31,822 nucleotides of DNA from Candidatus Geohydrothermomicrobium daggyaiense (lineage in GTDB: Bacteria; Actinomycetota; Geothermincolia; Fen-727; JACVIW01): positions 1 through 31,822 of the forward strand of contig JACVIW010000001.1 of the NCBI GenBank assembly GCA_015711695.1, given 5' to 3'. Both the position numbers and the translations under genes were made by a program. The first letter of the stretch is position 1. Every line of letters begins with the position of its first letter. Below, in pieces: positions 3,001-29,843 of this stretch. Under the pieces are notes generated by a model, which did not search any database, was not told where the DNA came from, and worked only from the letters and a program-made list of their open reading frames with translations.

Positions 3001-3046
3001 CAGGTTTTGAAATTCGTTTTCTTATATCAAGCATCAGGAAGTGGGT

Positions 3047-3664: not shown

Positions 3665-4616
3665 GTAAAAGATTTTCCTGAAAGAGCATCCGAAATGGAA
3701 GACTTTTCTTCTTTTTCCTATCGCGAGGAGAAGAGCGCATCAAAGGCGTTCATCCTGTTGTCGCGTTTCTGGCCAGTCTGTTGATCGCGACTACCTCCAT
3801 TTTCTCTCGCTTCATGAGATTCGGTAGATTCATGCCGGTCTGACGGTGTTTTCCGAATATGCAACTCCTTAAGAGAAGCCCGAAAATCAATCAATGATTT
3901 TCACTGTGGATGCAAAAAGGATATACGCTTGCTGCATAATGAAGGCGTTAGAAGATATTCCGCTTAAGGTCGCCCGGGAATACGGTGGGAGAAGGATATT
4001 CGCACAGCGTGTCGTTTTGCTGATATATTGAAACGCTTGACAGGAGGAGCTTTTCCACTCAAGGCGCCGGTTTGCTCATGTATTGAAATGCCCGCTTCGG
4101 GATGGAATCGGGGAGCCTGCAGCGTGCGTCTGGAGGTGGGAGAAAGAATAGTTCAAACTAACGCTTTCTCCATCTCTGCCTCCTGCGAGTCAAAAAATAC
4201 CCCAGGCGATATGGTGACATAGAAGGATGATTCTACGGTTATTGTTTTTATTATCCCGATGGATGGACGCCAATCGAACACTCAGGGCATAGCATAAGTC
4301 TACCGGCGCAATTTCACAGGAGAAAACGACCTACCCCGCGAGATTTGTGGTTTACAGAGCAGAGTTAAGGGATGCGAACGCAGTGTTTCTTAACGAGATT
4401 TTCAAAAGGGACGAACGTAAGAGTAGGGGTTTTTATGTTCGGCTGAAAAAAGGGGCAGCGCTTCCAGGATGTTCGAATAGGAGAATTCACGTGAAGGAAA
4501 GGCCCTTAGACTGAAAACGCTTCAGATTTTTCCCAAGAGATCGGGGGAGTCGCGGGAATAAATTGCCATTTGGCTGTGGGTGGAATTCAATAGTAATAGA
4601 ATTGTTTTTGAAAGGA

Positions 4617-5861
4617 TTATGAGTTCAAACCGCTATCCCCGGTAAAGTGGTTTTTTTCAATGCGGTTGATCCAAAGCAAGGGGGTTCTTATTTCTTTCAT
4701 ATCAGGGAGGTATGCCGCTCCCTTCCACACTAAATTCATGAAATCTATTCCTTTTCTTTTAACCACATCTTCGACAAATTTCTGCCCGAGCCTGTATTGC
4801 TCAAGTTTAAGGTTAATCCCAATCAACCTCTGGAAAAATCGTTCGGCGCTGCTTTTCATCTGCTTCCTTTTTTCAAAACGCTCTTTCATCATCTGGTAAG
4901 TGGAAAGCATCTCTTTTCCAACGTTATCCATGACGTGGTTTGAGTAACCCTCAAGCAGGCACATTGTTGCGTGAAGTTTCGCAAGGTATTTTCTCTGTTC
5001 GGGAGTGGTGAATATTGAGATAACGCTGCCGGAAAAATAAACGTCTTCGTCTGTAACCCCTGATTGCCGTACGCTTCTGAACGCTTCGATGCCTGAGGGG
5101 ATCTTGATGTTTATGTTTTGCAGATAATCTTGAAGCGTTGAAAAGAGGTAATCTTTGAGCCAGGAATTTGAATGAAATTCAAACGAATGCGTTACCTCGT
5201 GCAGGGTTATCCACTGCCTGAACTCTCTGGGATCGAGGGACATCTGGCTTTGAATTCGCATCACGTTTGGTTCAACCACATATAGCCTTGTTCCTCTTTC
5301 AGGTTCCGGCAAAGAAAGATCGAACTGCCCCAGAACGTTTCTCGCAAGATACCCAATTATGATCCCGATCTGGATTGTTAAAAGGGTATGTCCAATTTTT
5401 TCGCCCGCCTTGTCCCTGTAACCAGTTTTTTCAACGTAATCGAGGTATTTTTCGGATAAAGGTTCGAAGAGGTATCGGAATGATGGGATATTTGCCTCAA
5501 TCCATTCTTTCTGTGAAAATACTTCGATTTTTTCGGGAAGATTTTCTGCGTTGAGCCCGGTGTATTCCCTTACTTTTCTTTCAGCCGTTTCAAGCATTAT
5601 CTGGTACTGCTCGATCATAGGCGCAGAAAGTTCAGGTGGTTTCCACTTCTGGATGTTTAGGGTGGCAATTGCTATATCTCGAACCTGGTCCCAGTTTATT
5701 ACCTCATCTGAAGGGTGGCGGATAACGTTACGTATCTGCCTGCCGAGAGGAGTATAAGAGGCGATTCTTCTCGCAAGGGAGTCCAGACCTTCAAAGATAA
5801 TTTCAAGCAGGCTTTTTGGTGGTTCGAACCGATTCCCTTTATCACCAGTTGCGAGAGCCAT
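4617..5861 (-). CDS. zinc-dependent metalloprotease-like protein, DUF2342 family
   Basis: HEVTH (HExxH) with downstream LLEGYSNHVMD, plus LGQFDL, YVVEPN, KLEQYRLGQKF and PLLWINR, all typical of DUF2342. Confidence 0.85.
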   Translation of the reverse strand: MALATGDKGNRFEPPKSLLEIIFEGLDSLARRIASYTPLGRQIRNVIRHPSDEVINWDQVRDIAIATLNIQKWKPPELSAPMIEQYQIMLETAERKVREYTGLNAENLPEKIEVFSQKEWIEANIPSFRYLFEPLSEKYLDYVEKTGYRDKAGEKIGHTLLTIQIGIIIGYLARNVLGQFDLSLPEPERGTRLYVVEPNVMRIQSQMSLDPREFRQWITLHEVTHSFEFHSNSWLKDYLFSTLQDYLQNINIKIPSGIEAFRSVRQSGVTDEDVYFSGSVISIFTTPEQRKYLAKLHATMCLLEGYSNHVMDNVGKEMLSTYQMMKERFEKRKQMKSSAERFFQRLIGINLKLEQYRLGQKFVEDVVKRKGIDFMNLVWKGAAYLPDMKEIRTPLLWINRIEKNHFTGDSGLNS

Positions 5862-7151
5862 TTATTTCTTCTTTTCCCATTTCTCCAGATAGGCGACCTG
5901 ACTCAAAGTCCTTCCTTTGGAAATCTCACCTCTGAGCCTGTTTTCCTTTTCTAGAACATCCATCGCCCTGTTCGCGAACTCCGCCGCTTTTGCCCTGGGG
6001 ATTATCACCACCCCATCATCGTCACCCACAGCCCAGTCCCCGGGATGGATCCTCACGTCGCCTATTTTTATCGGGACGTTGATCTCACCAAAACCTTTTG
6101 GTTCGCCGGCGGTTGGCATTATCAATCTTGCCCAGACCGGGAATTTAAGCTTTTTGATTTCGGGTGTGTCGCGTACGGCTCCGTCTATGACTACCCCCGA
6201 GAGTTTTTTCTGGACTGCCGAATGGGTCGCGAGTTCACCCCACATTGCAGGTCCTTTTCCTCCGGCATCTATTACAAGAACTTCCCCTTCCTTCGCGACA
6301 TCGATAGCTTCTACCGGTTTTGCCCAGTCACCGGGATATGTTCGCACGGTAACTACCGGTCCTACCATTTTCAAACCTTCCATTACCGGCATCAATCCTT
6401 CGAGTTCTCCGGTTCTATGCATAGCGTCTGAAATATTCGGCGTCGATACGAGGGAAAGGGCTTCCCTAATGTTGCTATCTGTCACCCTCTTGTATAAAAC
6501 GGTTTCGACAGGCACGCCTGACAGCATGGCTCTCTTGATTTCTTCTGCTGCTTTTCTTGCGTCCGCCGATTTGATGATTGCGCCCCCGACTATGATGATG
6601 CTTGCTCCTCTTGAAACAGCTTTAGCGGCGGTTTCAGAGTTGATACCCCCCGCACAGGCGACAGGAATACTGACCGCTTTGGAGACTTTTTCGAGAACAT
6701 CGAACGGGTCGCCGCCAGTCATCTGAACGTCTATTGCGGTGTGGACAGCTATGTAGTTCGCACCCGCTTTCTCGGCAGCTATGGCACGCTCAACCGGATT
6801 CTTAACCTCTATCAAGTCAACGACTATTTCCGCCCCGTAGTTGTTGGCAGCGTCAACACATTCTGCTATTGTCGCGTCGGAGGATGCTCCGAGAACATCT
6901 ATGATATTTGCGCCCGCTTTAGCAGCGCATTCCACTTCTGTTCTGCCAGCGTCTATTGTCTTCATATCAGCGATAATCTTATGGTTGGGGAACTGTTCGC
7001 GGAAGGCTCTGACAGCGTTCAATCCCTCGCTCTTGATGAGCGGGGTACCAACTTCTATCCAGTCAGCGCCGCCTTCCAGAGCTTCCCTGCAAACTTCAAT
7101 TGCTCTCTCAAGGTCAACAAAATCAAGCGCGACCTGAAGTATCGGCTCCAA
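5862..7151 (-). CDS. hps: bifunctional 3-hexulose-6-phosphate synthase / RraA-like (HMG aldolase family) fusion
   Basis: N-terminal HPS domain: LQVALD, EVGTPLIK, ADMKTIDAG, AVHTAID, AGGIN. C-terminal RraA domain: STPNISDA, DWAKPVEAID, AMWGELAT, DGAVRD, VGDDDGVV. TTG start. Confidence 0.92.
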   Translation of the reverse strand: MEPILQVALDFVDLERAIEVCREALEGGADWIEVGTPLIKSEGLNAVRAFREQFPNHKIIADMKTIDAGRTEVECAAKAGANIIDVLGASSDATIAECVDAANNYGAEIVVDLIEVKNPVERAIAAEKAGANYIAVHTAIDVQMTGGDPFDVLEKVSKAVSIPVACAGGINSETAAKAVSRGASIIIVGGAIIKSADARKAAEEIKRAMLSGVPVETVLYKRVTDSNIREALSLVSTPNISDAMHRTGELEGLMPVMEGLKMVGPVVTVRTYPGDWAKPVEAIDVAKEGEVLVIDAGGKGPAMWGELATHSAVQKKLSGVVIDGAVRDTPEIKKLKFPVWARLIMPTAGEPKGFGEINVPIKIGDVRIHPGDWAVGDDDGVVIIPRAKAAEFANRAMDVLEKENRLRGEISKGRTLSQVAYLEKWEKKK

Positions 7152-7182
7152 GTCAGACCCCCCTTCCGGTCAGGCGAAACTA

Positions 7183-7191
7183 AGTATAACA
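7183..7191 (-). promoter_or_regulatory. possible extended -10 promoter (TG-T-TATACT) for hps-DUF2342
   Basis: Minus strand reads TGTTATACT about 30 nt upstream of the hps TTG; no good -35. Confidence 0.35.
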
Positions 7192-7414
7192 CAGGGCTTA
7201 TATCGGTGTTCCACTGTTTTCTTTATCTCTATGCGTCGCGTTTATAAGTCACTAATAAAGGCTTTTCCATTGTTCTGAAGGACTCTCAAAAACCACTGAA
7301 TCCATATGAGCAGTTATGTTAAACTCTTTTTGTCGAGATAACTCTGATTTCTTATTTTTTGAGGGATAAGGGGTATACTTTTAGTTTCTTTCGATAGGGT
7401 TTAAGGGAACAGAC

Positions 7415-8731
7415 ATGAGGGGAAGCCAGGACTGCATAAATATAGGGCTTCTTGGATGCGGGACGATTGGCTCGGGCGTCTATCATCTTATTCAAAAGAA
7501 TTACTCCGAACTAACCGAGGCGGCGGGAAAGCCCCTGAAGGTGAAGAGAATTCTTGTTAAGGATCCTTATGAGCCTCGACCTTTCGAGGTGGACCGAGAA
7601 ATAATGGTGACCGACCCGGGGCAGGTAATCAGTGACGAAAGCATTGATATATTTGTGGAGGTAATGGGAGGGATTCAGCCAGCTCTCAGTCTCGCTCTGG
7701 ATATTATTTCGAGCGGCAGGCACCTTGTCACAGCCAATAAAGAGATTATTGCGAATCACGGAAGAGAGCTTATGGCTAAAGCTGCACAAACAGGATCACA
7801 TGTGCGTTTTGAGGCTGCAGTTGGCGGAGGGATACCACTAATACGTCCTTTAGAGGAATCTCTTGGTGGAGACAATATTCTAAAAGTAATGGGTATTGTC
7901 AATGGAACAACTAACTATATTCTCTCGAAAATGAGCAGTGAAGGGAGTGCTTACGATCAAGCACTCGCGGAGGCGCAGAGGCTTGGCTTCGCGGAGTCTG
8001 ATCCCACAGCTGACGTTGAGGGATTTGACGCTGCGAGCAAACTCGCGATACTGTGTTCGATACTTTTCAAGAGAGGGGGCACTCCGAGGGAAATATACCG
8101 CGAGGGAATCCTGTCGGTTCGGCCCGAAGATTTGGAAAATGCACGGGAACTTGGTTTTGTTGTTAAACTTCTTGCTATTGCTGTCCGCGAAAACGATCTG
8201 ATCTCCGCTCGCGTCCATCCAACCATGATTCCTGACTCACATCCACTCGCAAGCGTCAACGGGAACTTTAATGCGATATTTGTCGTGGGAGAATCTGTAG
8301 GGGAACTTATGTTTTACGGTCAGGGAGCGGGATCCCTTCCGACTGCCACGGCTGTTCTCGGGGATGTTGTTAACGTTGCCAGGAATCTCGGGAGACCTCC
8401 GATTTCGACCAGAACTTACTGGCTCAGAGACGCCAGCATAAAACCCATCGGGGATACGGTTACACGTTTCTATATGGTTTTGAGGGTCATTGATAAACCC
8501 GGCGTCCTTGCCAGGATAGCCGGCGTTTTCGGTGATAATAATGTAAGCCTTGAAAGTGTTGTCCAGAAGGGAATTGGTGACAGCGCACAGATTATCTTAA
8601 TTACCCATGAAGTTATTGAAAGTAACTTCATGAAAGCAAAGAATGGACTGGAAAAACTTGACGTGGTACTTGAAATACCAAGTGTTATAAGGGTCGAGTC
8701 AGGTTCAGAGAGTAAATCGCAGAATGCTTAG
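7415..8731 (+). CDS. hom: homoserine dehydrogenase with C-terminal ACT domain
   Basis: GLLGCGTIG, VTANK, FEAAVGGGIP, NGTTNYIL, GFAESDPTADVEG, GQGAG..PTA, ACT motif DKPGVLARIAGVFG. Confidence 0.96.
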   Translation: MRGSQDCINIGLLGCGTIGSGVYHLIQKNYSELTEAAGKPLKVKRILVKDPYEPRPFEVDREIMVTDPGQVISDESIDIFVEVMGGIQPALSLALDIISSGRHLVTANKEIIANHGRELMAKAAQTGSHVRFEAAVGGGIPLIRPLEESLGGDNILKVMGIVNGTTNYILSKMSSEGSAYDQALAEAQRLGFAESDPTADVEGFDAASKLAILCSILFKRGGTPREIYREGILSVRPEDLENARELGFVVKLLAIAVRENDLISARVHPTMIPDSHPLASVNGNFNAIFVVGESVGELMFYGQGAGSLPTATAVLGDVVNVARNLGRPPISTRTYWLRDASIKPIGDTVTRFYMVLRVIDKPGVLARIAGVFGDNNVSLESVVQKGIGDSAQIILITHEVIESNFMKAKNGLEKLDVVLEIPSVIRVESGSESKSQNA

Positions 8732-8954
8732 CGGTTCGAAGCGTCTTCGCTGACAGAGATTCATGACCGTTCTGTTAACCTTTTCAAAGAGTGAACGAAA
8801 AAATTGTATCCGTCTGAGCAAAGAGCGTCTATCTGGTTCGATCAAATCTGAATTTCTTCTCGTGATTCGACTCTCATTTCTGAGTCTCGAATGAGGAATC
8901 CGGAAAGTCCGTTTACATCCTGGTAATGGATTTTCAAAGCGCCAGGAGGGAGCT

Positions 8955-10046
8955 ATGAAATCGGGTGATTCTTTAGGTCAAAACAAAAATCTGTGGAAAG
9001 GAGTGATAAACGAGTACAGGGAATTTCTTCCTGTAACTGAAAGCACTCCGGTTGTCACTCTTCTTGAGGGAAATACCCCTCTGATCAGATCGAGAAGAAT
9101 TTCGGATGAATTAGGCGTAGAGGTCTATTTCAAATATGAGGGCTTAAACCCAACAGGATCATTCAAGGACCGCGGGATGACAGTAGCTATAAGTAAAGCG
9201 CTCGAAGAGGGCGCACGCGCTGTGATTTGTGCCTCAACCGGCAACACATCGGCATCAGCAGCAGCCTATGCGGCAGCTGCCGGGATCAGGTGCGCGGTTC
9301 TGATACCGCGCGGAGCGATTGCCCTTGGCAAACTTTCTCAGGCGCTTATACACGGGGCGCAGGTTCTGGCTGTTAATGGCAATTTCGATGAGGCATTGAG
9401 AGTGGTCAGAGAGATCGCTTCAAGAAGCGAGGTCGTTCTGGTTAACAGCGTCAATCCAATGAGAATAGAAGGCCAGAAGACTGGAGCGTTTGAGATTTGC
9501 GATGCTCTGGGCGGAGCGCCAGATATCCAGGTTATTCCTGTTGGCAATGCGGGTAATATAACCGCTTACTGGAAAGGATACCGTGACTACTATGCTGCGG
9601 GTAAGATTGATTCCCTACCGAAACTTTTCGGTTTCCAGGCTGAAGGTGCAGCACCGATAGTCCGAGGTTACCCCGTGAAGAATCCTGAGACGATCGCTAC
9701 CGCGATAAGAATCGGAAATCCCGCTTCCTGGCAAGGAGCAGTTCGCGCGGCGGAGGAATCAAAGGGGAAGATAGATATGGTTAGCGACAGCGAGATTCTA
9801 GAAGCTTACCATATGCTTGCCTCAAAGGAAGGCATATTTGTTGAGCCGGCTTCCGCTGCTTCTCTCGCAGGTTTGATTAAGATGAGGAAATCAGGCATGA
9901 TTCCTTCGGGCGTGAGGGTGGTAAGCATACTCACCGGTCATGGTTTGAAAGACCCTGATAGGGCTGTCGCGGAGTCTCCACAACCGCCTGTAGTCGAGCC
10001 AGATACGGATCGGATTTTAGAAATGATAATTTCTCAGAACAATTAA
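8955..10046 (+). CDS. thrC: threonine synthase
   Basis: [21 protein letters not shown] (PLP lysine), [32 protein letters not shown]; SD AGGAGG upstream. Confidence 0.96.
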
Positions 10047-10153
10047 TCACATTAGCGTAAGGTTGAGTGTTTTATCAGACGTATCAAGATCAAAAAAGAT
10101 CAGTATCATAATCAGCCAGGCACTTCTCACGTGTCTTTAGCGGAGGTGGACAG

Positions 10154-11371
10154 TTGATAGTTGCCGTTCTTGTTCCCGACGGCGCTGCAGACCTTCCCAT
10201 TGAGGAGCTCGGCGGAAAAACGCCATTGGAAGCCGCGCAAACCCCATACATGGATGAAGTCGTCAGGCAGGGAATAACCGGAACACTTAAAACTATTCCT
10301 GATGGAATGTCGCCTGGGAGCGATGTCGCCAATATGTCTCTTTTGGGGTACGACCCGAAAAGATTTCTAACCGGACGTGGGGCGATAGAGGCTGCGAATC
10401 TCGGAATAGATATACCGGATGGCTGGACCGCGTTCAGATGTAATCTTGTCACGGTTGAGAACGATATAATGGTTGATTACAGCGCCGGGCATATCGGCCA
10501 GGATGATGCTTTGCTTTTCATAGACTTTTTAAATCAAAGAATTGCAGATGACAGGATGAGATTCTATGCGGGGACTTCCTACAGGAATATTCTTCTTATC
10601 AAAGGGTCATATGAGGCTGTTAAGTGTACTCCTCCTCACGACATCACAGGTATGCCCATAGATGAGTACCTGCCTTCGGGTGATGGTTCTGATGTTCTCA
10701 TTTCAATTATGGAGCACTCGCGCGAAATTCTTACGGAATGCAATATCAACGCGAGAAGGAAGGAGAACGGTCTTCCCCCGGTAAACATGGTATGGTTATG
10801 GGGACAGGGCAAAAAGATGGTGCTTGAGAGTTTTGAAAAAAGGTTCGGACTTACCGGGGGAATCATAAGCGCGGTGGACCTTGTCTGTGGAATCGGAAAA
10901 CTTATCGGTCTTAAGAGGGTGCATGTTCCGGGAATGACGGGGTACCTTGACACAAATTACGCCGGGAAAGGCGAAGCCGCGATTGAAGTGTTAAAAGAGC
11001 AAAATTTCGTTTATGTTCATGTCGAAGCCCCTGATGAAGCATCTCATATGGGCAGCGTAGAAGAAAAGATAAAGGCAATCGAAAGATTTGATAAACTGGT
11101 TGTTGGCAGGGTTCTTAATTTTATTGCTGACACTGCGGAAAAGTCGAGATTATTGGTTTGCCCGGATCATCCAACCTTTATCCTTACGCGAACACATGAC
11201 AGTTCCCCGGTCCCGTTCGCTTTATGCGGTTCAGGTATTCCAGAAGGGGGGTTTAACACTTTCTCTGAGAGATCAGCACAACTTTCTGGGCTGCATATCG
11301 AGGAAGGACATGAGTTGCTTCCGCTTGTGGTGGCGACAAAAGTTTTGGAAAAAGGTTTTTTTTCACGATAG
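10154..11371 (+). CDS. apgM: archaeal-type 2,3-BPG-independent phosphoglycerate mutase ApgM (subfamily also proposed as a homoserine phosphotransferase)
   Basis: PDGAAD, GKTPLE.A.TP, PGSDVAN (phospho-Ser), YDP...GRG.IEA, TPPHDI, WLWGQG, HVEAPDEASH, PDHPT, THD..PVP. TTG start with GGAGG at 10142-10146. Confidence 0.9.
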   Translation: MIVAVLVPDGAADLPIEELGGKTPLEAAQTPYMDEVVRQGITGTLKTIPDGMSPGSDVANMSLLGYDPKRFLTGRGAIEAANLGIDIPDGWTAFRCNLVTVENDIMVDYSAGHIGQDDALLFIDFLNQRIADDRMRFYAGTSYRNILLIKGSYEAVKCTPPHDITGMPIDEYLPSGDGSDVLISIMEHSREILTECNINARRKENGLPPVNMVWLWGQGKKMVLESFEKRFGLTGGIISAVDLVCGIGKLIGLKRVHVPGMTGYLDTNYAGKGEAAIEVLKEQNFVYVHVEAPDEASHMGSVEEKIKAIERFDKLVVGRVLNFIADTAEKSRLLVCPDHPTFILTRTHDSSPVPFALCGSGIPEGGFNTFSERSAQLSGLHIEEGHELLPLVVATKVLEKGFFSR

Positions 11372-11409
11372 TTTTATACGTTTCGTTGAGGAGATTGAAG
11401 ATTTTTTAA

Positions 11410-12276
11410 ATGGAGCATGCAAGCGGTAAAATCCAAGCATTTGAGAGAGGAAAAGCGAAGATGTGCGAAGCAGAAAAGATGCCGGGAAAAACAGCAATAA
11501 AACTTGCCCATATATCGGACATTCATATCGGCTCGAACCATTTCGTTTCCAATCTGTTAAACCGAGCCATAGTTGAGATAAACGAGATAAAGCCGGATAT
11601 CGTCCTTGTGTCGGGGGATATTACTAATGACGGTTTCAGGCAGCAGTATTCCGCTGCCCAGGCTTTCTTAAGAAACCTTGAGTGCGAAAGGATTTCAGTT
11701 ATACCCGGGAATCACGATTCACGAAACGTGGGATATGTTCACTTCGAGGATATGTTTGGAGATAGGAACAATGTTGTTTATCTGCCTGGAGTGACTCTCG
11801 TCGCCTTGGATTCTTCTCAGCCAGACCTTGACCAGGGAAGACTCGGGAGACAAAACTATAAGTGGATGGTTGAGAAATTAAACAAGCCTCAAGATTTCAA
11901 AATCGTTGCCCTTCACCACCACCTGTTGCCTGTTCCTGGAACCGGAAGGGAGAGGAATATAATTGAAGACGCTGGTGATTTCCTGAAACTTTGCGTTGAT
12001 GTTGGTGTGGATCTTGTGCTTGCCGGTCACAAACACGTTCCCCACGCATGGCACTTTGAGGATTTCTATGTTGTGAACGTTGGAACGGTTTCTTCCCTCC
12101 GCCTCAGAGGCTATGCGAGGCCTTGCTACAACATAGTAGAAATCGTGGACCGAGAATGTCGTGTTACAAGGAAGCACCCATTTGGCGAAAGCATGGAGAT
12201 TGTAAGGTTTCCCGTTAAACCCAAAAGTAAAAACATAAATGTTGACGCCTCCGCCGAAGAGGGGCTTTTTCCGTAA
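11410..12276 (+). CDS. calcineurin-like metallophosphoesterase (CpdA/YydB-like phosphodiesterase)
   Basis: All five motifs are intact: HISDIH, SGDIT, PGNHD, LHHH, GHKH. The true start may be ATG 11461 or 11479. Confidence 0.9.
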   Translation: MEHASGKIQAFERGKAKMCEAEKMPGKTAIKLAHISDIHIGSNHFVSNLLNRAIVEINEIKPDIVLVSGDITNDGFRQQYSAAQAFLRNLECERISVIPGNHDSRNVGYVHFEDMFGDRNNVVYLPGVTLVALDSSQPDLDQGRLGRQNYKWMVEKLNKPQDFKIVALHHHLLPVPGTGRERNIIEDAGDFLKLCVDVGVDLVLAGHKHVPHAWHFEDFYVVNVGTVSSLRLRGYARPCYNIVEIVDRECRVTRKHPFGESMEIVRFPVKPKSKNINVDASAEEGLFP

Positions 12277-12309
12277 TCTGTTGTTTGACCCTTCTGCACG
12301 GGGATATCC

Positions 12310-13671
12310 ATGGGTGATAAGAAAAAACCTGTTATTGTGCTCGTTGATGGAGAACATTACTCGGACGTGATTCTCGACACCTTTTCTTTTCTCGAGAGTG
12401 AACAGAGTTTTCTGATTTCAGCGATTGTTTTTCTTGGTGGAGCTGAGAAACTTGAGGATCTTAAGACAATAAACTATAAGAACATTCCTATCTATACGGG
12501 CAAAACGCCTTTCGAGGCTGTTTCTGTCGCTATTTCAAATCATGATATCGAGATGGTAATCGACCTTTCAGATGAACCTGTCCTCAGTTACCCTGAACGC
12601 TTTAGGATAGCCAGCATCGTTCTCGCTTCGGGCGTGTCCTATGCTGGTGCCGATTTCAAATTCGATGCTCCTGATTTTCCATTCCTTTTTGATAAGCCTG
12701 GTATAGGAATATGGGGTTCCGGTAAACGGGTTGGAAAGACTGCAATATCGGCATACGTATTGAGGTTTCTCATTCAAAAAGGCTTCAATCCATGCGTGCT
12801 TACCATGGGAAGAGGAGGACCCGCGGCCCCCGAGTTAATTGATAAACCTTACCAGATAGACGACGATTTCCTTATCCGGACTGCCAGAAAAGGAATACAC
12901 GCAGCAAGCGATCACTTCGAAAATGCTATGATGGGAAGGGCACGCGCGATTGGGTGCAGAAGATGCGGTGGGGGGATGGTTGGAATGCCCTATTTCTCAA
13001 ACGTTCAGGAAGGGGCGCGATTGGTCTCGCGGATTGAATGCGATGTGGTACTTTGTGAGGGAAGCGGCGCGACGATACCGCCTGTGGGCGTTGACGCGGC
13101 GCTTCTTGTTGTTTCTGCGATTCAACCGATTGAAAACGTTCTTGGATACCTTGGTCCTTGCAAGCTGTTGCTTTCAGACCTGGTTCTGGTTACAATGTGT
13201 GAGGATTTTCTTGTACCCGGCAGGAAAATTCAAAGATTGGTTGACGGGATCAAGTCCATAAATCCCGAGGCAAGAGTTCTAAAGACTGTTTTCAGACCTC
13301 GACCTCTCGGAGATATCAGGGGCAGGAAGGTATTCCTAACAAGTACGGCGCCCGATCGGGCAGTACAAATCCAGGTCAAGCATCTCGAAAAAAAGTATAA
13401 AGCCGACGTTGTAGGTTCAAGCGCAAATCTCGCTAACAGGAAAAAACTGAGGGATGAATTAAAAGACCTGCGGGGCGCGGAAGTTCTTGTGACCGAATTG
13501 AAGGCGGCTGGCGTCGATACGGTCTCGTGTATGGCAAAAGAGATGGGGATTGATCTGGTGTATATGGACAACATCCCGGTGTCTATCGAGGGGAACCTCG
13601 ACGAGGAAATTGGAAAACTCCTGTCGGTTGCCAGGGAGCGCTGCCAGAAGAGGCTGGATGGGATGAGTTAA
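12310..13671 (+). CDS. cpgS: cyclic 2,3-diphosphoglycerate synthetase
   Basis: VDGEHY, GGAEK, DLSDEPV, GSGKRVGKT, MGRGGP, HAASDHFENA, CRRCGGG, EGSG and TELKAA match the cDPGS family over 453 aa. Confidence 0.9.
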   Translation: MGDKKKPVIVLVDGEHYSDVILDTFSFLESEQSFLISAIVFLGGAEKLEDLKTINYKNIPIYTGKTPFEAVSVAISNHDIEMVIDLSDEPVLSYPERFRIASIVLASGVSYAGADFKFDAPDFPFLFDKPGIGIWGSGKRVGKTAISAYVLRFLIQKGFNPCVLTMGRGGPAAPELIDKPYQIDDDFLIRTARKGIHAASDHFENAMMGRARAIGCRRCGGGMVGMPYFSNVQEGARLVSRIECDVVLCEGSGATIPPVGVDAALLVVSAIQPIENVLGYLGPCKLLLSDLVLVTMCEDFLVPGRKIQRLVDGIKSINPEARVLKTVFRPRPLGDIRGRKVFLTSTAPDRAVQIQVKHLEKKYKADVVGSSANLANRKKLRDELKDLRGAEVLVTELKAAGVDTVSCMAKEMGIDLVYMDNIPVSIEGNLDEEIGKLLSVARERCQKRLDGMS

Positions 13672-13711
13672 ATAGTGCGGGTGTGCTGCCCCAAAAATGG
13701 AGGTCGCCTGT

Positions 13712-14662
13712 ATGGCTGAGAGGCTTCAAAAAATAATAATCACTGATGAGGAGCATCATCTACCTTATTCAAAGGGATTGATGGCTACCACTTTGATGGC
13801 TACCGGTCTTCCACCGGACAGGGCTTATCATATCGCCTCTGTGATTCATGAGACTCTTCGTGACGAGGGAAATCCAGAGGTCACGATGGAGCACGTCAGG
13901 AAAACCGCGGAGCTGATTCTTGAAAGGGAAGCTGGTGCGCGCTATGTTGAGATTTACAGAAAATGGCAGTCGCTTGCCACACTCAACCGCCCAATAATTC
14001 TCCTTATAGGTGGTGCTACGGGGGTTGGAAAATCGACGGTATCTACAATGCTTGCGAACAGACTCGGTATTATCAGACAGGTTTCTACTGATGTTATCAG
14101 GGAAGTAATGCGGGCTCTTTTTTCTCCCGATTTGATGCCTGCTCTTTACAGCTCCTCTTTTAACGCTCACGAATCAATGAGAATCCCACTTCCTCAAACA
14201 ACTGACAAGGTAATACTCGGTTTTCTGGAGCAGGCGGCGATGGTCTGGGTAGGGATAAGGGCAATTATCGAACGTGCTGCTCTGGAGAGGACAAACTTTA
14301 TCGTCGAAGGAGCCCACATAGTCCCTGGAATTATCGAGCCTTCCGCTTTCCAGGACGCTTACGTTCTGCAGATGGTTTTGGCTGTTGATGATGAAGCCCA
14401 GCACAGGAGTCATTTTGAGATCCGTGAGGTTGAGACTGAAGGCGCGAGACCTTACTACAGATACATAAAAAATCTTTCTTCCATTAGGAAGATTCAGGAG
14501 TATGTTCTTGAGCTTGCCCAAAGAGAGAATGTGCCCGTTTTTCACTGTTACAATCTTGATAACACCGTCAGCGAAATTGTGGAGTTTGTTATAAACAGTA
14601 TTTTTGGAGAGGGCACCGCAGATCAGGGCGAAGTCATTGGTTCTCAGGGTTTGAAGGCCTGA
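13712..14662 (+). CDS. pgk2: 2-phosphoglycerate kinase (ATP-cone + P-loop)
   Basis: PYSKGLMA ATP-cone start, GGATGVGKST P-loop, STDVIRE, LYSSSF, IVEGAHIVPG. ATG 13712 follows GGAGGT (13699-13704). Adjacent to cpgS. Confidence 0.88.
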   Translation: MAERLQKIIITDEEHHLPYSKGLMATTLMATGLPPDRAYHIASVIHETLRDEGNPEVTMEHVRKTAELILEREAGARYVEIYRKWQSLATLNRPIILLIGGATGVGKSTVSTMLANRLGIIRQVSTDVIREVMRALFSPDLMPALYSSSFNAHESMRIPLPQTTDKVILGFLEQAAMVWVGIRAIIERAALERTNFIVEGAHIVPGIIEPSAFQDAYVLQMVLAVDDEAQHRSHFEIREVETEGARPYYRYIKNLSSIRKIQEYVLELAQRENVPVFHCYNLDNTVSEIVEFVINSIFGEGTADQGEVIGSQGLKA

Positions 14663-14736
14663 GAGTTTTTAAATAATAGCGCTCTGGCAATTCTTCGAGC
14701 AATTCAACCGGTTTAACCCGTAAAAGGAGGTATGAA

Positions 14737-15384
14737 TTGAAGTTGTTCATTGATACTGCCAACGTTGAGCACATAAAAGAAATACACAGCTGGGGGGTCT
14801 TGGAAGGGGTAACGACAAACCCGACTCTTGCAGCAAAGGAAAACAGGAGTTACGTCGATTGTATCAAGGAAATCACTTCTTTTGTGAGGGGACCCGTAAG
14901 CGCAGAAGTCGTGTCTGAGGATGTGCAGGGAATGGTAGAAGAAGCCAGAAAGCTTGCTGCTATCGCTCCTAATATTAATGTTAAAATACCCATTTGCGTT
15001 GAGGGTCTTAAGGCAATAAAAGCGCTTTCCGATGAAAATATTAAGACGAACTGTACCCTCGTTTTCTCGGCAAATCAGGCTTTGCTCGCGGCTTCAGCCG
15101 GGGCGACATATGTTAGTCCTTTTCTCGGCAGGATTGACGACATGGGAAATGACGGTCTCCGGGTTCTTGAAGAGATCGTAGAGATATTTGAATATTACGG
15201 GATTGACACACAAATAATCGCAGCATCTTTGAGGCATCCGCAGCATGTTGTTGGGGCTGCACTTATTGGCGCGCATATTGCGACTATTCCCTATGATGTG
15301 TTCAAAGCGATGGTGAGGCATCCCTTGACCGATATCGGAATAGAACGTTTCAAAGCGGATTGGGAGAAGATAAAGAACCTTTAG
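14737..15384 (+). CDS. tal: transaldolase (TalC/FSA family)
   Basis: FIDTA, GVTTNP, VKIP Schiff-base lysine. SAEV (Glu) and SPF (Phe) indicate transaldolase rather than FSA. TTG start 6 nt after AAAGGAGG. Confidence 0.93.
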
Positions 15385-15416
15385 ATTAGATAAATATTAA
15401 GGAGGTTATACCTGCA

Positions 15417-16754
15417 ATGGACGTTGTTGACAGAAAACTTCTTGAAGACAAGCTCTTAAGTGAGCTTCAAGAAATCGGACAAGCTCTTGAGATCGAGGGT
15501 GTTAAGAAGTATCGAAAGAAAGAACTAATCGACCTGATACTCCGTGAAGTTGGCGCTCTTAATGACGAAAAGACTGCTGAGGTAGCTGTGGATGAACAGG
15601 TCGAAACAGAGGCAAAACCGGCCAAAGAAGAACCTACCGAGGGTGTAGGAAGCGGGATTCTTGACATTCTTTCCGATGGATACGGATTCTTGAGAACACA
15701 AGGCTATCTGGCGTCCGAAAAAGACATATACGTCTCAATGTCCCAGATAAGGAGGTTCCGTCTCAAGCGAGGAGATGAGGTTAAGGGGCAGGTAAGACCG
15801 CCGAAGGATTCAGAAAAGTACAGCGCGCTGCTAAGGATAGAGTCGGTAAACGGCGACGACCCGGAAGTCGCGATGCACCGGAAACAGTTCGAGATGTTGA
15901 CGCCCCTCTATCCGATGGAGCGGCTCCGGCTCGAGACGAAAAACTCCTCTATAACCGGGAGAATAATCGATCTGATTGCTCCCATAGGGAAGGGACAGCG
16001 TGGTCTAATCGTCTCACCACCAAAAGCCGGGAAGACGACAGTTTTGAAACAGATAGCCAACAGCATAACCGACAATAACCCTGAGGTTTACCTGATGGTC
16101 CTGCTGATTGATGAACGACCCGAGGAGGTAACCGACATGGAGAGGTCGGTCACGGGTGAGGTAATATCTTCCACTTTCGACCAGCCGAGCGATAACCATA
16201 TTGCTGTTGCTGAACTGGTGCTCGAAAGAGCAAAGAGACTCGTAGAGCATAACAGGGATGTTGTGATTTTGCTTGATAGCATAACGAGGCTTGCCAGGGC
16301 ATATAACTTGAGCACCCCGGCAAGCGGGCGCATCCTTTCAGGCGGAGTGGACTCTACCGCTCTTTTTCCTCCAAAGCGCTTCTTTGGAGCGGCGAGGAAT
16401 ATTGAGTTCGGTGGGAGTCTTACTATCATCGCGACCGCGCTTGTGGATACAGGAAGCAGGATGGATGAGGTCATTTTCGAGGAATTCAAAGGTACCGGCA
16501 ACATGGAAATTCACCTTGACAGGAAACTGGCAGACAAGAGGATCTTTCCGGCTATCGATATAGAAAAGTCTGGAACTAGAAAAGAGGAACTCATACTCGA
16601 TCCTGATGAAGCAACAAAGGTCTGGCGGCTCAGGCGAATCCTTCATTCACTTGACCCGAGCGCAGCGATTGAGCTCTTGATTGATGGGATCAGAAAGACA
16701 CGTAGCAACGCTGAATTCCTTGCCCAGATCAAAGACGCGCAGGGACTTAAGTAA
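15417..16754 (+). CDS. rho: transcription termination factor Rho
   Basis: [66 protein letters not shown]. Confidence 0.98.
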
Positions 16755-17123: not shown

Positions 17124-17148
17124 TCAGCTTGAAGATCAGGGACTATTT
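17117..17148 (+). terminator. possible intrinsic terminator after rpmE
   Basis: CCTGATC / GATCAGG stem with an 8-nt loop, followed by only a weak TATTT tract. Confidence 0.3.
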
Positions 17149-18385
17149 GAAGTCTGACAAACCTCAAAAGCACCGTAATCTATAGCCATGCGCCTTTTCA
17201 AGCATTCCACACTCTCTTGCTGGTTTGCCTGAATCCACATTCTTAAACCTTACCCTTCTTTCTTCCCCCGCTTTCCAAAAGCAGGCCTGATTCTCTGAGT
17301 CTTCTTTTCTCTTACCCCTGGTGCCTCACTCTTACCTCGCTTCTGTTCTGCCGTGTTCATTTTCACAAAAACCGCTCTTCAATCATCCTGCCCACGAAAA
17401 CTCCTTGTTTGTATCCTTTGATTGAGAAGGAACGCGTTATTTGTGTTTGACGTGCGATGCGGTAAAAGTTTGGCGGGTAGTAGGCGGCGCGCAGGGTGGC
17501 GCTGGGTTGTTAGCCCTGAAATAGTGCGGAGGCGTAGACTCAAGCAGAATTCCAGGGCTTCAAGCTTTCTATTCTCCCCCTGAAAAGTGGAGACATGCAA
17601 AATCATTTTGTTGAAAATAGACAGGGAGAAGCAAGGCTTCCCCGTGAAAAACATTTCGCGAAGCAGAAAACGCCCGGAAGTGTTAGCGGAGACTGAAATT
17701 TCCTGAAAGACAAGGTCCACAATAGCTGGAAATCTTATCATGGCTATTTACCACAGCGCTAAACGGTTTTACTGACAGGGAGGTAATGGTAAGGAAGTAA
17801 AGCCTTTAACTTGACGTGGAAGAGGAAGGTTGCCACGATCACCATGTTCAGTTCGCTGAGAGTCGAGCGCATGCTCAAGCGTTCCGGAAAATGGGGCGGA
17901 AAGATCGCCAGGTTGATTCATCTCAAGGCGACTGACGGGCTTCGATGCCAGGTCAAAAGTTATGCGGGAAAAAAGGACAGAAAGAGATTCTTAAGCTCGC
18001 TGTTACAAAGCCAGGAAGAAGTCTTAAAAAGCTTCTGACGAAAGCTTCTGACGCGTGACTTTCAACTTACTTCCTATTGCTGAAAAAGGCAGATAGCAAT
18101 GAAAACCTGGTGCCGGCATAAAGCGCTCTGTCGCTCTCAGGAAAGGTGGTTTAAAGATCGTGAAGGTTTCTTACTGCTAAATCTTAAGTGCTACTCCGTC
18201 CCACATACATGAGGAGTCCCGCAAAGAGATATGCGATAATTTATTACAGGAAATCCCTTGCTTTTGAGATAATTTATCGAATATGCGGTGTGTGTATATT
18301 CGGGATTGTGGAATGCTTTTAAATTGGGCAAAAAGGGTTTTGTTTTGTTATCACGGGAAAGGAGAGATGAAATCTGGTTGAAAAT

Positions 18386-19459
18386 ATGTTCGACAAACTC
18401 GAGGCGCTCAAGAAAAGACTTGAAGAGATAGACGGCATCCTTGCTGATCCCGACACGCTCGCTGATAGCAAGCAGTATGTGCGGCTGGTGAAAGAGAGGG
18501 CTTCGATCGAGGAAATTGTTTTTCTCTACGATCATTTCAGGACGTTATCAGATCAACTAACAGATGCGGAGCAAATGCTTAACTCCGAGAACGACCCCGA
18601 GATGGTCGAATTCTTGCGGGATGAGGTGCGCCGGCTCAAAGAGGAAATCGAAAATACATCCCGGAAAATGAGAATAATGTTGATACCCAAGGATGAGGAT
18701 GCGGGCAAGGATATCATCGTTGAGATAAGAGCGGGCGCGGGCGGCGACGAAGCGGCTCTTTTCGCTGCGGATTTATTCAGGATGTATACAAGATACGCGG
18801 AAAGAAAAGGCTGGAATGTTGAGCAGATGTCATCTTCCCCTTCTGACATGGGTGGTTATAAAGAGGTTATTTTCTCCATAAAGGGTGACGATGTCCACTC
18901 GAGGATGAAATTCGAATCCGGTGTTCACAGGGTGCAGAGAATTCCGGTGACAGAATCGTGAGGCAGGATTCACACATCAACAGCCACGGTCGCTATTCTG
19001 CCAGAGCCCGAAGAGGTGGATGTGGAAATTGACCCTGCCGATTTGAAAATAGATGTGTTCCGCTCCACCGGCCCGGGTGGTCAGTCTGTCAATACGACTG
19101 ATTCAGCAGTAAGGGTCACGCACAAGCCGAGCGGTATTGTCGTCACGTGCCAGGATGAGAAGTCCCAATTCCAGAACAAGGAAAAGGCTCTTCGTATTCT
19201 CAGAGCGAGGTTGCTCGATGAAGAGCGCAAAAGACGCGCCAATGAAGAAGCACAGAAAAGAAAGAGCCAGGTAGGAAGCGGTGAGAGAAGCGAGAAAATA
19301 CGGACCTATAACTTTCCGCAAGGGCGTGTGACCGATCACCGGGTCGGACTTTCTCTGTATAAACTTGACTCAATAATCGACGGCGATCTTGACGAATTGA
19401 TCGATGTGCTTATTGAGGATGAAAGAGTAAGAGCGCTCAGGGAGATGGCGGAATCATGA
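18386..19459 (+). CDS. prfA: peptide chain release factor 1, interrupted by one in-frame TGA (codon 192, 18959-18961)
   Basis: The two track ORFs (18386-18961, 19016-19459) are in the same frame. Joined, they read ...[25 protein letters not shown]...[10 protein letters not shown]...[20 protein letters not shown]: 357 codons with the RF1 PxT motif and GGQ. Confidence 0.95.
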
Positions 19460-20313
19460 AATATTGGGAGTGTTTGAAAGCTGCTACTTCATATCTTGAA
19501 GAAAACGGGATAACATCAGCGAGGGTGAACGCAGAAGTCATACTCGAGGATACACTGCGCCTTTCCCGTAGCGAGATTTACGCTCGATACGGTGAGGATA
19601 TTTCGCCAGAGATGGCAGAGAAGTACTTTGACAGAGTGCAGCTCAGGGGCAGAAGATTTCCCTTGCAGTATATAACCTGCACCACTTCATTTTTCGGTTT
19701 GAACCTGGAAGTTACCCCTGGTGTTTTCATACCGCGTCCCGAGACCGAGACTCTGGTTGAAAAGGCTCTTGAGATACTTCCGCTCATTGACGCAGGGCAG
19801 GTGAGAGTTCTTGATATCGGGACAGGTAGCGGGAATATAGCCGTTGCGATCGCTTCGCTATGGAAAGATGCTCACGTTACCGCGGTGGACATAAGTCCGC
19901 TCGCCCTGAAAATCGCAAAAAAGAACCTGGAAAACCACGGGATCTTGAATCGCGCCAAAGTTGTATTAAGCGATTTATTCTGCGCCCTGGATTCAACAGT
20001 TGACCGTTTTGACATGATAGTTTCAAACCCGCCATATATTGCTGAGCCTTTGATTGGCAGTCTCGATCCCGAGGTGAGGTTTTTTGAGCCGGCGCAAGCA
20101 ATAAACGGTGGACATGATGGTCTTTTTGTCACAAAAAAAATTATTGATCGCGCCCCGGATTTCTTAAATGATGGAGGATTTCTTCTGCTCGAGACCGATC
20201 CCGGACATATCGAAGCTCTTTCATCCTTTATTTCTGACCCCTGGGGGGATGTTGAATTCTTCGAAGATCTCAGCGGAAGGACAAGGGTTATGGTCGCGAG
20301 GAAATCCCGCTGA
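19456..20313 (+). CDS. prmC: release factor glutamine methyltransferase
   Basis: [25 protein letters not shown]; ATGA overlap with the prfA stop. Confidence 0.96.
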
Positions 20314-23073: not shown

Positions 23074-23892
23074 ATGGAGGCTTCAATGGGAGCTAAGAGT
23101 GATATCATCGAACAGGCCGCGCGAATGATTGACGCGGCAGGGAAAATAGTTGCTCTAACAGGCGCTGGAATTTCAGTTGAGTCCGGTATTCCTGATTTCA
23201 GATCTCCGGGCGGTTTGTGGACAAGGTACGATCCGGTCGTTTACGCCACATTCGAATCCTTTATCAACGACCCTTCGAAGTTCTGGGAGATGGCTGCCGA
23301 TTTACACCCTTTGCTCGAGAACGCTGAGCCGAATCCTGCTCACATGGCTCTTGCTGAACTTGAAAAACTTGGCAAATGCGAAGCTGTGATAACCCAGAAC
23401 ATCGACAACCTTCACCAGAGGGCTGGAAGCGGCCAGGTGCTTGAGCTTCATGGAACTTTCCGGACGGGCACTTGTCTCGGTTGCCGCAAACAACACACAT
23501 ATGAGCAGATTAAAGAGTCGGCATTCCGTGGAGAAATACCCAGGTGTGTGATCTGTGGCGGCGTGGTGAAACCGGATGTGGTTCTTTTTGGTGAGCCGCT
23601 GAATGCATCAGTGTTGCAGAGGTCTAATGAGCTGGCAAGTCAATGTGATCTTATGCTTGTTATCGGATGCGGGCTTGAAGTCTATCCTGCGGCTTCTTTG
23701 CCCTCTTATGCAAAAAGAGGGGGAGCCCGTATCATCTTCGTTAACATCGCAAGCACTCCTTATGACCCCATAGCGGACCTTATACTTTTGGGAAAAGCGG
23801 GGGAGGTAATGCCTGCGGTTGTTGAGGCTTATAAAAGGATAGCCGAAAAGGAAGTGAAACGATTTGGGCGCTGGAAATCGAAGGATAATTGA
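23074..23892 (+). CDS. cobB: NAD-dependent protein deacylase (sirtuin)
   Basis: GAGIS.ESGIPDFR, TQNIDNLH, HG, Zn pairs CLGC/CVIC, KPDVVLFGE. Confidence 0.94.
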   Translation: MEASMGAKSDIIEQAARMIDAAGKIVALTGAGISVESGIPDFRSPGGLWTRYDPVVYATFESFINDPSKFWEMAADLHPLLENAEPNPAHMALAELEKLGKCEAVITQNIDNLHQRAGSGQVLELHGTFRTGTCLGCRKQHTYEQIKESAFRGEIPRCVICGGVVKPDVVLFGEPLNASVLQRSNELASQCDLMLVIGCGLEVYPAASLPSYAKRGGARIIFVNIASTPYDPIADLILLGKAGEVMPAVVEAYKRIAEKEVKRFGRWKSKDN

Positions 23893-23893
23893 T

Positions 23894-26680
23894 TTGGAGG
23901 AATGGTCTAGAAAATTTAGTGATTCCGATATGTCCGGTTTCGGGGCGAGGTTTAAAAAAGGTCTCACGAAGCCAAAGATAGTCATTCTCGTAATAGTCGC
24001 GCTCATTATTATTTTTTTCCTTATAATAGCACCGTTTGCTGATTTTTATACGGACGCGCTCTGGTATAACCAGCTGGGTTTCCAGAACCTTTTCTGGAAA
24101 ACTCTCATCGCGAAAATACTTTCGGTGATTTTTTTCGGCGCGATATTCTTCGCGATAATTTTCACCAACATTCAGATCGCGAGAAAACTTTCACCCGAAC
24201 AGAGGATTGATCTTGAAGGTTCTCCCCTCGAGGGCATTGTAAAGCTGATTCAGGAGACCTGGACAAAGCTCGTCAGAGTCATTGTTGTTGTCTTCTGCGT
24301 TTTCACCGCTTTTATCTCAGGCTTCGGATGGGGGGCCAATTGGGAACTGGTACTAAAATTTTTAAATCACTCCTCTTTCGGTAAAGTAGACCCGATATTC
24401 CAGAAGGACGCCGGTTTCTACATGTTTACTTTTCCGTTTCTCAAGGTCTTTGCTTCATGGTTGCTGGGCTCCTTGATTTTCGTATTTATCATCACGAGCC
24501 TCATATATCTTCTTGTGGGCGGGATACGATTCAGGCGTGGTGGGGAAATGTTTGCTCCAAAGGTGAAGGGACATCTTTCGATACTCCTTGCTGTGATATT
24601 TCTCGTTAAAGCGTTTATGTACAGACTGAACATGTATGAGTTGCTTTTTAACAAGGAAGGGGCAGTCTACGGTATCGGGTACACCGATCTCAAAGTGCGG
24701 ATTCCAGCTCTCTGGATATTGTTTGTGCTTTCCATCGTAGCGGCCGTTGTGCTCATCGCCAATGTACGTTACCGGGGATGGATTCTTCCTTTGATAGCCA
24801 TCAGCTCGCTTGTGATAGTCACAATTATCGCAGGTTCGCTTGTTCCCCTTATTATGCAGAACTACAGGGTAAAACCTAACGAGAGGGGACTTGAAGCTCC
24901 ATATCTAAAGCACAACATAGATTTCACCCGCATCGCATACGATATCCATAAGGTCAAGACAAAACCGTATCCTGCTGATGAAAAACTCAACATGGAGTTG
25001 ATAAATAAGAATCGTCTGACAATAGATAACGTGCGGCTTTGGGATGCCCGTCCCATGCTTGACCTCTATCAACAGCTGCAGGCTATAAGACAGTATTACG
25101 GGTTTACTGATGTGGACGTTGACAGGTATGTGATTGATGGTGTTTACAGACAGGTCATGATAGCTGCCCGGGAGATGATTCAGGGCAACCTCCCCGCTAC
25201 CGCCAAAACATGGATAAATCAGGTTCTTGTTTATACTCATGGCTATGGTGTAGCGGTCGCTCCCAGCAACGACGTCACAGAAGAGGGTAATCCTCGCATA
25301 ATCCTCAGGGATATACCTCCGCGCAGTGAGACGGATCTTAAATTAAGCAAACCTGGAATATATTTTGGAGAGCAGACATCCGGTTATGTTGTTGTAGACA
25401 CCACCGAGGACGAGTTCGACTACCCTCTGGAAAACAAACAGGTTTACACGAAATACGAAGAGAGGGGAGGGGTATACGTCAAGAACCTGTGGAGGAGGAT
25501 TCTTTTCGCAATTAGATTTTTTGACCCTAATATGCTTTTCAGCGGACAGATCAGGCCGAGTTCACAGGTTCTGTACTTCAGAGATGTGCGTGAAAGGGTC
25601 TCAAGGTGCGCTCCTTTTTTGAAATTGGATAGGGATCCATACATTGTCATAAACGATGATGGGAAATTGTACTGGATCCTGGATACGTACGCGACCAGCG
25701 ATTATTTCCCCTACAGTGAACATACAGAGGGCTTCGGCAACTACATAAGGAATTCGGTTAAAGCTGTTGTTGATGCTTATAATGGCAAAGTCTGGCTTTA
25801 CGTCATAGATGAGAAAGACCCGGTAATAAGAACCTATAGAAAGATCTTCCCCGGCATATTCACCCCTTTTGAGAAAATGCCTGAGAGCCTAAAACGGCAT
25901 TTGCGCTACCCGGAGGACTACTTCATTATCCAGGCAAACATGCTAAGGACTTACCACATGACAGACCCGCGCCAGTTTTACAATAAGGAAGATATGTGGG
26001 ATTTTCCAAAAGAGACTTACAATGAAAGCGCTCAAGAGATGGTCCCTTACTACTTGATAATGAAGCTTCCCGGGGAGAGTAGAGAGGAGATGGTTCTTCT
26101 TCTCCCATTTGTGCCGCATAAGAGGCAGAATATGATTTCCTGGTTCGCGGCGAGGATGGACGGTGAAAAATACGGCGAACTCATAAATTTCGCTTTTCCT
26201 CCTGGGAAGCTTATTTATGGTCCGGAACAGATCGAGGGGAGAATCGAGCAGGATCCCCTAATAAGTCAGCAATTATCCCTCTGGAGGCAGGAGGGATCAG
26301 AAGTCATAAGGGGAAACCTTCTTGTCATTCCTATTGAGGGATCTATTCTGTATGTGGAACCCCTGTACCTTCAGGCGGCACAAATAAAAATACCTCAGAT
26401 TAAACGTGTCATAGTTGCCTACGGGCAGCAGGTCGTGATGGAATCCACGCTGGAAAAAGCTCTCGAGAGGATATTTACGGGCGCGCCACCAAGCATGGTT
26501 GAAGAACAAAAACCAGTAACAGGTAACCTTAATGAGGTTTCCAGCAGGGCTCTTGAACTTTATGAGAAAGCCACAGAAGCGCAAAAAGCCGGAAACTGGG
26601 CACAATACGGTGAATATCTAAGAGAGCTCGGCGAAGTGCTTAAGAGCTTGGCAGAGCAGGTCAAGAAGGAATCACAGTAA
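23894..26680 (+). CDS. UPF0182 family membrane protein
   Basis: N-terminal TM helices, DP.F.KD.GFY.F.FPF, N.RLWD, YTHGYG, IYFGE, NYIRNSVK, PYY..M.LPG, GNLLVIP, YVEPLY. Start uncertain: TTG 23894 has AAGGA 8 nt upstream; alternatives are 23864 and 23930. Confidence 0.93.
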   Translation: MEEWSRKFSDSDMSGFGARFKKGLTKPKIVILVIVALIIIFFLIIAPFADFYTDALWYNQLGFQNLFWKTLIAKILSVIFFGAIFFAIIFTNIQIARKLSPEQRIDLEGSPLEGIVKLIQETWTKLVRVIVVVFCVFTAFISGFGWGANWELVLKFLNHSSFGKVDPIFQKDAGFYMFTFPFLKVFASWLLGSLIFVFIITSLIYLLVGGIRFRRGGEMFAPKVKGHLSILLAVIFLVKAFMYRLNMYELLFNKEGAVYGIGYTDLKVRIPALWILFVLSIVAAVVLIANVRYRGWILPLIAISSLVIVTIIAGSLVPLIMQNYRVKPNERGLEAPYLKHNIDFTRIAYDIHKVKTKPYPADEKLNMELINKNRLTIDNVRLWDARPMLDLYQQLQAIRQYYGFTDVDVDRYVIDGVYRQVMIAAREMIQGNLPATAKTWINQVLVYTHGYGVAVAPSNDVTEEGNPRIILRDIPPRSETDLKLSKPGIYFGEQTSGYVVVDTTEDEFDYPLENKQVYTKYEERGGVYVKNLWRRILFAIRFFDPNMLFSGQIRPSSQVLYFRDVRERVSRCAPFLKLDRDPYIVINDDGKLYWILDTYATSDYFPYSEHTEGFGNYIRNSVKAVVDAYNGKVWLYVIDEKDPVIRTYRKIFPGIFTPFEKMPESLKRHLRYPEDYFIIQANMLRTYHMTDPRQFYNKEDMWDFPKETYNESAQEMVPYYLIMKLPGESREEMVLLLPFVPHKRQNMISWFAARMDGEKYGELINFAFPPGKLIYGPEQIEGRIEQDPLISQQLSLWRQEGSEVIRGNLLVIPIEGSILYVEPLYLQAAQIKIPQIKRVIVAYGQQVVMESTLEKALERIFTGAPPSMVEEQKPVTGNLNEVSSRALELYEKATEAQKAGNWAQYGEYLRELGEVLKSLAEQVKKESQ

Positions 26681-29766: not shown

Positions 29767-29843
29767 TGCGGGGTGGAGCAGTCTGGTAGCTCGCTGGGCT
29801 CATAACCCAGAGGTCGCCGGTTCAAATCCGGCCCCCGCTACCA
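29767..29843 (+). tRNA. initiator tRNA-fMet (CAT)
   Basis: 77 nt cloverleaf TGCGGGG...CTCATAA...GGTTCAAATCC...CCCCGCTACCA. Three G:C pairs in the anticodon stem, unpaired 1:72, encoded CCA. Confidence 0.97.

Follow-up and report, generated by a model that had tools for sequence, protein, structure and literature searches.

A TGA codon within the release factor 1 gene of one actinobacterial metagenome-assembled genome is private to that assembly

To our knowledge, prfB, the gene for release factor 2 (RF2), is the only release-factor gene that carries a programmed in-frame UGA. The UGA of prfB is located near the 5′ end of the gene, sits within a conserved slippery and SD-like site, is passed by a +1 frameshift, and is conserved in most bacteria (PMC11463598). 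A literature search returned no precedent for an in-frame-stop device in prfA, the gene for release factor 1 (RF1), in agreement with the first-pass annotation of this DNA, which knew of none. Loss of RF1 has been achieved in the laboratory, where knockouts survive only with amplification or mutation of RF2, changes that are engineered or evolved (PMC7530605). Here, a prfA gene with a TGA at codon 192 is described. This TGA is private to one assembly, and both the relatives and the co-population assemblies carry a sense codon in its place.

The window, the whole 31,822-nt stretch of DNA that was analyzed, is contig 1 of a metagenome-assembled genome (MAG) of 2.10 Mb (284 contigs, 86.8% complete, 2.2% contamination, 47% GC). 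Its prfA gene (Table 1) translates into a 357-codon RF1 with a sole internal stop at codon 192, between the segments RIPVTES and GRIHTS, and positions 18947-18973 read GTG ACA GAA TCG TGA GGC AGG ATT CAC. The product displays the elements of an RF1: full length, a PxT motif, a GGQ motif, and, with X placed at the break, the Pfam domains PCRF (5e-72; residues 8-202, profile 1-194 of 194), which spans the stop, and RF-1 (1.9e-44; residues 209-319), in that order. The uninterrupted frame expected of an RF1 gene is lacking in the window and is present in an ENA contig and a Logan contig that are described below. The TGA is positioned five codons past the proline of the PVT motif and three past its threonine, and ORF calling with table 11 divides the gene into pieces of 191 and 147 aa, the second of which begins at GTG 19016. 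In RF1-ribosome structures, residues of the GRIHTS segment, which directly follows the break, help to read the third base of the stop codon. At the other end of the gene, the terminal TGA of prfA overlaps the ATG of prmC (ATGA, 19456-19459).

Table 1. Positions of prfA, its motifs and its internal stop, of prmC, and of bases that differ between the window and ENA contigs
Feature	Position	Strand	Description
prfA (RF1)	18386-19459	+	Identified by translation, Pfam, and colinearity with RF1 of 40 relatives; intact except for one in-frame TGA
In-frame TGA, codon 192	18959-18961	+	Base 18959 is T in the window and G (GGA, Gly) in two same-population assemblies
PVT (PxT) stop-codon recognition motif	18944-18952	+	Residues 187-189; upstream of the break; P[VA]T in 20 of 20 aligned relatives
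18 conserved RF1 codons	18962-19015	+	Follow the stop and precede the first codon that could serve as a restart
GGQ peptidyl-tRNA hydrolysis motif	19076-19084	+	Residues 231-233; downstream of the break
prmC (release-factor glutamine methyltransferase)	19456-20313	+	The identical gene in ENA has the Pfam families PrmC_N and MTS
Difference from ENA contig	17977		Window A, ENA G; intergenic
Difference from ENA contig, tsaC-like codon 106	20650	+	Window CCA (Pro), ENA GCA (Ala); sister genome matches window
Difference from second ENA contig, hom codon 222	8079	+	Window GGC (Gly), ENA GTC (Val); sister genome Val, window derived

The first-pass annotation had reported a TGA in an otherwise pristine prfA, three codons after the PVT motif, with 18 codons of conserved RF1 sequence before the next possible start and with the GGQ motif downstream. 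As a description of the contig, this account is accurate. The TGA is found at exactly the reported position, in the sequence and in its translation, the distance of three codons is correct when counted from the threonine, the GGQ motif lies on the far side of the break, and a local alignment with the sister genome is 95-100% identical on either side of the stop, which bears out the conservation of the 18 codons up to GTG 19016. The account of the codon as one that normally encodes Gln, Gly, or Ser is likewise in keeping with the relatives. Aligned codon 192 was read in 20 of these: it is GGT in the same-genus genome and GGN, AGC, TCC, or CAG in the remaining 19, giving Gly, Ser, or Gln and never Cys. 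GGA and TGA are separated by a single G>T step.

All 40 relatives that were searched, from the same genus to the same class, have an RF1 match free of internal stops, and the TGA is conserved in none of them. The RF1 of the same-genus genome is 84% identical to that of the window at the protein level, and the named relatives identified by RF1, which are 64-65% identical, all belong to uncultured Actinomycetota, as MAGs of Geothermincolia and Anoxymicrobiaceae. Mismatches between the prfA genes of the window and the sister genome are distributed over the three codon positions as 40/41/185, and as 2/2/37 in the region around the stop. The gene is thus under strong purifying selection and carries no other lesion, as would be expected if the stop were an error or had arisen very recently.

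The window is represented in public runs of marine metagenomes. One of these, X1, contains 0.84 of the sampled 31-mers of the gene and 0.75 of those of another 10-kb stretch of the window, and its Logan contigs were aligned to window positions 18300-19600. A Logan contig of 686 nt, which covers 18507-19192, has a single difference from the window, T>G at 18959, seen at 5/5 depth in this one contig at a distance of 234 nt from the contig end. X1 covers the locus in pieces at a depth of 4-5, with gaps such as 18436-18506. Logan contigs lose minor variants, and the T allele could still exist in the X1 sample. In addition, the RF1 of the window with Gly in place of the stop is encoded, as an exact match, on an ENA metagenome contig of 14,272 nt. 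This contig reads GGA at codon 192 and shares 99.978% identity with the window across 13,886 nt, with three differences. An exact look-up of the 191-aa truncated product found no other record, and a scan of JGI metagenome contigs with a 35-mer that spans the site, its variable base set to N, matched neither allele.

Another contig from this ENA assembly spans window positions 2310-15502, also with three differences, at 2444, 8079, and 8822, which brings the comparison to six differences in 27 kb, half of them intergenic. When polarized by the sister genome, two differences are derived in the window (hom V222G and the change of prfA Gly192 to a stop) and one is derived in ENA (tsaC P106A); the remaining three are uninformative, one because the sister genome has a third base and two because they are unalignable. 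This polarity shows no asymmetry such as would prove an error. The differences at hom 8079 and tsaC-like 20650 are both non-synonymous, and synonymous differences number zero in the 27 kb, counts that are too small to interpret. The first-pass annotation had pointed to the reads, where a sense codon might be seen, and to a possible second, intact prfA. With contigs standing in for reads, a sense codon is essentially what was found, the Logan and ENA contigs both reading GGA; a second prfA was not found in the 87%-complete MAG. The observation of the TGA holds for the contig, and the step from the contig to the organism fails.

Among frames of at least 250 aa across the MAG, TGA ends 48%, TAA 33%, and TAG 19%, and of the 23 genes in the stretch of the window for which external gene calls exist, 10 end in TGA, prfA included. 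The genes hom, apgM, tal, tsaC, and rpiB end in TAG, as had been stated in the first-pass annotation. The MAG also contains a 3′ fragment of another release-factor gene, whose 5′ part is lost at a contig end and in which SPF and GGQ motifs are present; this gene carries SPF and is therefore RF2. ARAGORN identified 36 tRNAs and a tmRNA in the MAG. Rfam and tRNA scans of the window itself returned nothing besides a tRNA-Met at 29767-29843.

Two further regions of the window were noted. In the 1.26-kb gap between rpmE and prfA (17124-18385), the ENA annotation calls no gene, and no Rfam family was found. The gap is not similar at the nucleotide level to the sister genome, whose rpmE-prfA gap is ~3 kb, and it includes the variant at 17977. 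At 23864-26680 (plus strand), a 938-aa protein of the UPF0182 family (PF03699) is encoded, and the start of its gene overlaps with the end of the SIR2-family gene before it.

Other in-frame stops of the MAG were surveyed, with its error rate as the aim, by comparison with ~750 kb of the same-genus genome, or ~160,000 aligned codons. Most of the apparent in-frame stops in this comparison are shadow-frame noise; when third-position periodicity was applied, antisense frames that share the wobble position remained. Three other MAG genes, on contigs C18, C195, and C160, have stops within a Pfam domain match, and all three kinds of stop are represented. These genes carry two stops or further frame breaks and look like genuine pseudogenes, and they therefore provide no calibration of the error rate. 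The occurrence of TAG, TAA, and TGA as in-frame stops in the MAG argues against a recoding specific to UGA. Comparable cases are found in the sister genome.

The three genes differ in their architecture. The gene on C18 (14215-15171, minus strand) encodes an NAD-dependent epimerase/dehydratase with TAG 15123 just past the GATGCIG nucleotide-binding motif and TAA 14625. The Pfam Epimerase match (profile 2-240 of 240) crosses both stops, where the same-genus genome has Ser and Tyr, and the gene is probably a true pseudogene. On C195 (601-2595, plus strand), a 485-codon open frame runs without an intervening stop from a GFO/IDH/MocA oxidoreductase into the first part of a creatinase-N/M24 peptidase; TAG 2056 is located inside Creatinase_N, and the M24 match ends at position 110 of the 208-position profile. 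In the sister genome, the same frame has a TAG elsewhere, inside the GFO C-terminal domain (L072 19176), and the locus represents either an unusual gene fusion or a decay that, oddly, both genomes share. On C160 (4514-4912, plus strand), a B12-binding domain (profile 1-120 of 121) is broken by TGA 4610, where the sister genome has Arg. Further stops occur in frame upstream of this domain, and the gene is likely a pseudogene or frameshifted.

Several explanations of the prfA stop as a functional element were proposed in the first-pass annotation, and even taken together, all readings other than an error or a nonsense allele private to one strain have a small probability. Programmed read-through of the UGA would tie the output of RF1 to the level of RF2, a cross-regulatory counterpart of prfB autoregulation. 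The sequence itself, with its single UGA in a pristine gene and an RF2 in the genome, is what suggests this device. The stop is absent from the sister genome, from the 40 relatives, and from the same population at 99.98% identity, and the option falls on this lack of conservation even within the population. In addition, the literature holds no precedent in prfA, no suppressor tRNA was found in the MAG, and the 81 nt from the stop onward have no significant fold (z = -0.65; 56 of 200 shuffles fold as well). A prfB-type stimulatory context was likewise not found at the stop: the codons GAA UCG UGA GGC include no CUU U slippery site, and no significant structure follows. Programmed read-through is highly improbable. 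Recoding of the UGA, either as selenocysteine or through a code 4/25-type reassignment to Trp or Gly, has in its favor that the ancestral Gly is the code 25 meaning of UGA, which is mere coincidence of the one-step change from GGA to TGA. As concluded in the first-pass annotation, UGA is a normal stop here and codes 4 and 25 are excluded: TGA is the commonest stop and ends prfA too, RF2 with its SPF and GGQ motifs is present, and no UCA-anticodon tRNA is found among the 36 tRNAs of the 87%-complete genome. The insertion of selenocysteine, which that annotation had allowed for, is left with neither machinery nor a SECIS-like fold. In the same 87%-complete MAG, tRNA-Sec is absent from the 36 tRNAs, the selA model has no match, and those for selB and selD hit nothing but paralogues, below the cut-off; a SECIS-like fold was not found 3′ of the UGA, and Cys occurs at the site in none of the 20 relatives read there. 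Long same-frame ORFs that are split by a single stop, counted genome-wide, are interrupted by TGA in 46 cases, TAA in 28, and TAG in 25, which mirrors ordinary stop usage, and there is thus no excess of TGA junctions. Recoding is extremely improbable and, within the limits of an 87%-complete genome, is refuted for both selenocysteine and code reassignment. A naturally split RF1 would consist of two polypeptides, residues 1-191 and 211-357, that reassemble, and GTG 19016, 18 codons past the stop and preceded by GAGG, could be taken as the start of the second. The GAGG-GTG belongs to the conserved coding sequence PEEVDVE, however, and the 18 codons that would be skipped (GRIHTS and following) are conserved and part of the codon-recognition region. 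The break would fall inside the codon-recognition loop and within one Pfam domain match, which tells against the split protein put forward earlier; no relative has a split gene, and this reading has next to no probability.

Two mundane readings remain, both of which had been named in the first-pass annotation and both of which find support; an error is the most likely, and a rare nonsense allele of one strain is next. On either reading, artefact or rare allele, the feature does not characterize the lineage, nor even the population. In the case of an allele, one strain would carry a prfA with a stop in place of Gly192, of recent origin and deleterious or transiently tolerated, and the assembler would have taken the path of this non-representative strain. 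Its cells would have RF1 only as traces from spontaneous read-through of the UGA and would rely on RF2 or on compensatory changes. The differences between the window and the ENA contigs, derived on both sides, suggest that the assemblies may be from slightly different strains, and the intergenic location of half of them suggests real variation filtered by selection. The state of the gene, which is otherwise free of decay, would fit a very recent event, and RF1 loss is survivable in the laboratory with RF2 amplified or mutated, as the available part of the source describes (PMC7530605). Against the allele, TAG is the stop of 19% of long frames and a second prfA was not found in the MAG, and a null would be strongly selected against and unlikely to be the majority. 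Moreover, G is seen at full depth in X1, the one public run in which the organism is clearly present, and the truncated product occurs in no other record. A real nonsense allele is possible but rather unlikely. The first-pass annotation had called an assembly error a serious possibility, and this is strengthened by the two same-population contigs, both of which read GGA. Consensus errors are to be expected in a MAG of 284 contigs given the patchy depth of 4-5 in X1, and about one-fifth of genes need prfA, with no back-up copy, which also counts for error. On the other side, the Logan and ENA contigs may share reads and may therefore be one witness rather than two. The gaps in X1 indicate that the MAG was not assembled from X1 alone, and the data from which it was built may be different and may contain a genuine T. 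The mixed derived sides, with 20650 being ENA-derived, and the three intergenic differences of six resemble real strain variation equally well. On balance, the prfA of the organism is probably ordinary, with GGA (Gly) at codon 192, and the T a consensus or base-call error in the assembly of a low-abundance population; the T is most probably such an error rather than a rare real allele.

If the T is an error, the true prfA would be uninterrupted, and the G>T at 18959 would stem from a consensus or base-call error, in keeping with the k-mer depth of ~5 in X1. No recoding would be involved. RF1 would be made normally and would read UAG and UAA, and prmC would be translated through normal coupling. 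In the gene as assembled, termination at codon 192 would leave a fragment that ends in the codon-recognition loop, lacks the GGQ domain, and is predicted to be inactive. The organism most probably never makes this 191-aa fragment.

Were the stop fixed, it would be either the first cross-regulatory stop codon in prfA or the mark of a natural RF1-less bacterium that still uses TAG, and it would bear on the understanding of termination and of genetic-code evolution. That a natural strain of this uncultured marine actinobacterium carries prfA G192(UGA), with RF1 made by low read-through (more when RF2 is scarce) or not at all and RF2 covering UAG, is highly improbable; such a strain, if real, would be the counterpart in nature of the RF1 knockouts made in the laboratory. 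Annotation should list prfA as intact (Gly192) or mark it for a possible sequencing error, and not call it a pseudogene. More generally, when a low-coverage MAG shows a lone nonsense codon in an essential gene that is otherwise pristine, the site should be checked in reads or further assemblies from that sample before the codon is interpreted.

Comparison with known systems places the locus accordingly. Similar to prfB, the window prfA has an in-frame UGA within a release-factor gene. The differences are that the UGA of the window prfA lies mid-gene in the recognition loop, calls for no change of frame, has no CUU U, and is not conserved. If the allele were real, the state of the cell would be that of laboratory RF1-deficient strains, such as E. 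coli RFzero and Salmonella delta-prfA with prfB amplification, although the RF2 of this genome is known only as a 3′ fragment and its SPF motif is normal. Nonsense calls in low-coverage MAGs, which arise as consensus errors or minority-strain paths, share with this case a one-base difference, a MAG that is fragmented and of low depth, and purifying selection on the rest of the gene; the sole distinction of the present case is that the gene hit is essential and conspicuous. The ordinary prfA-prmC operon is matched in the order of PCRF and RF-1, the PxT and GGQ motifs, the length of 357 aa, the ATGA junction, and the neighborhood of rpmE followed by prfA-prmC-tsaC-rpiB-glyA, and the window departs from it by a single T at 18959 in this one assembly and by nothing else.
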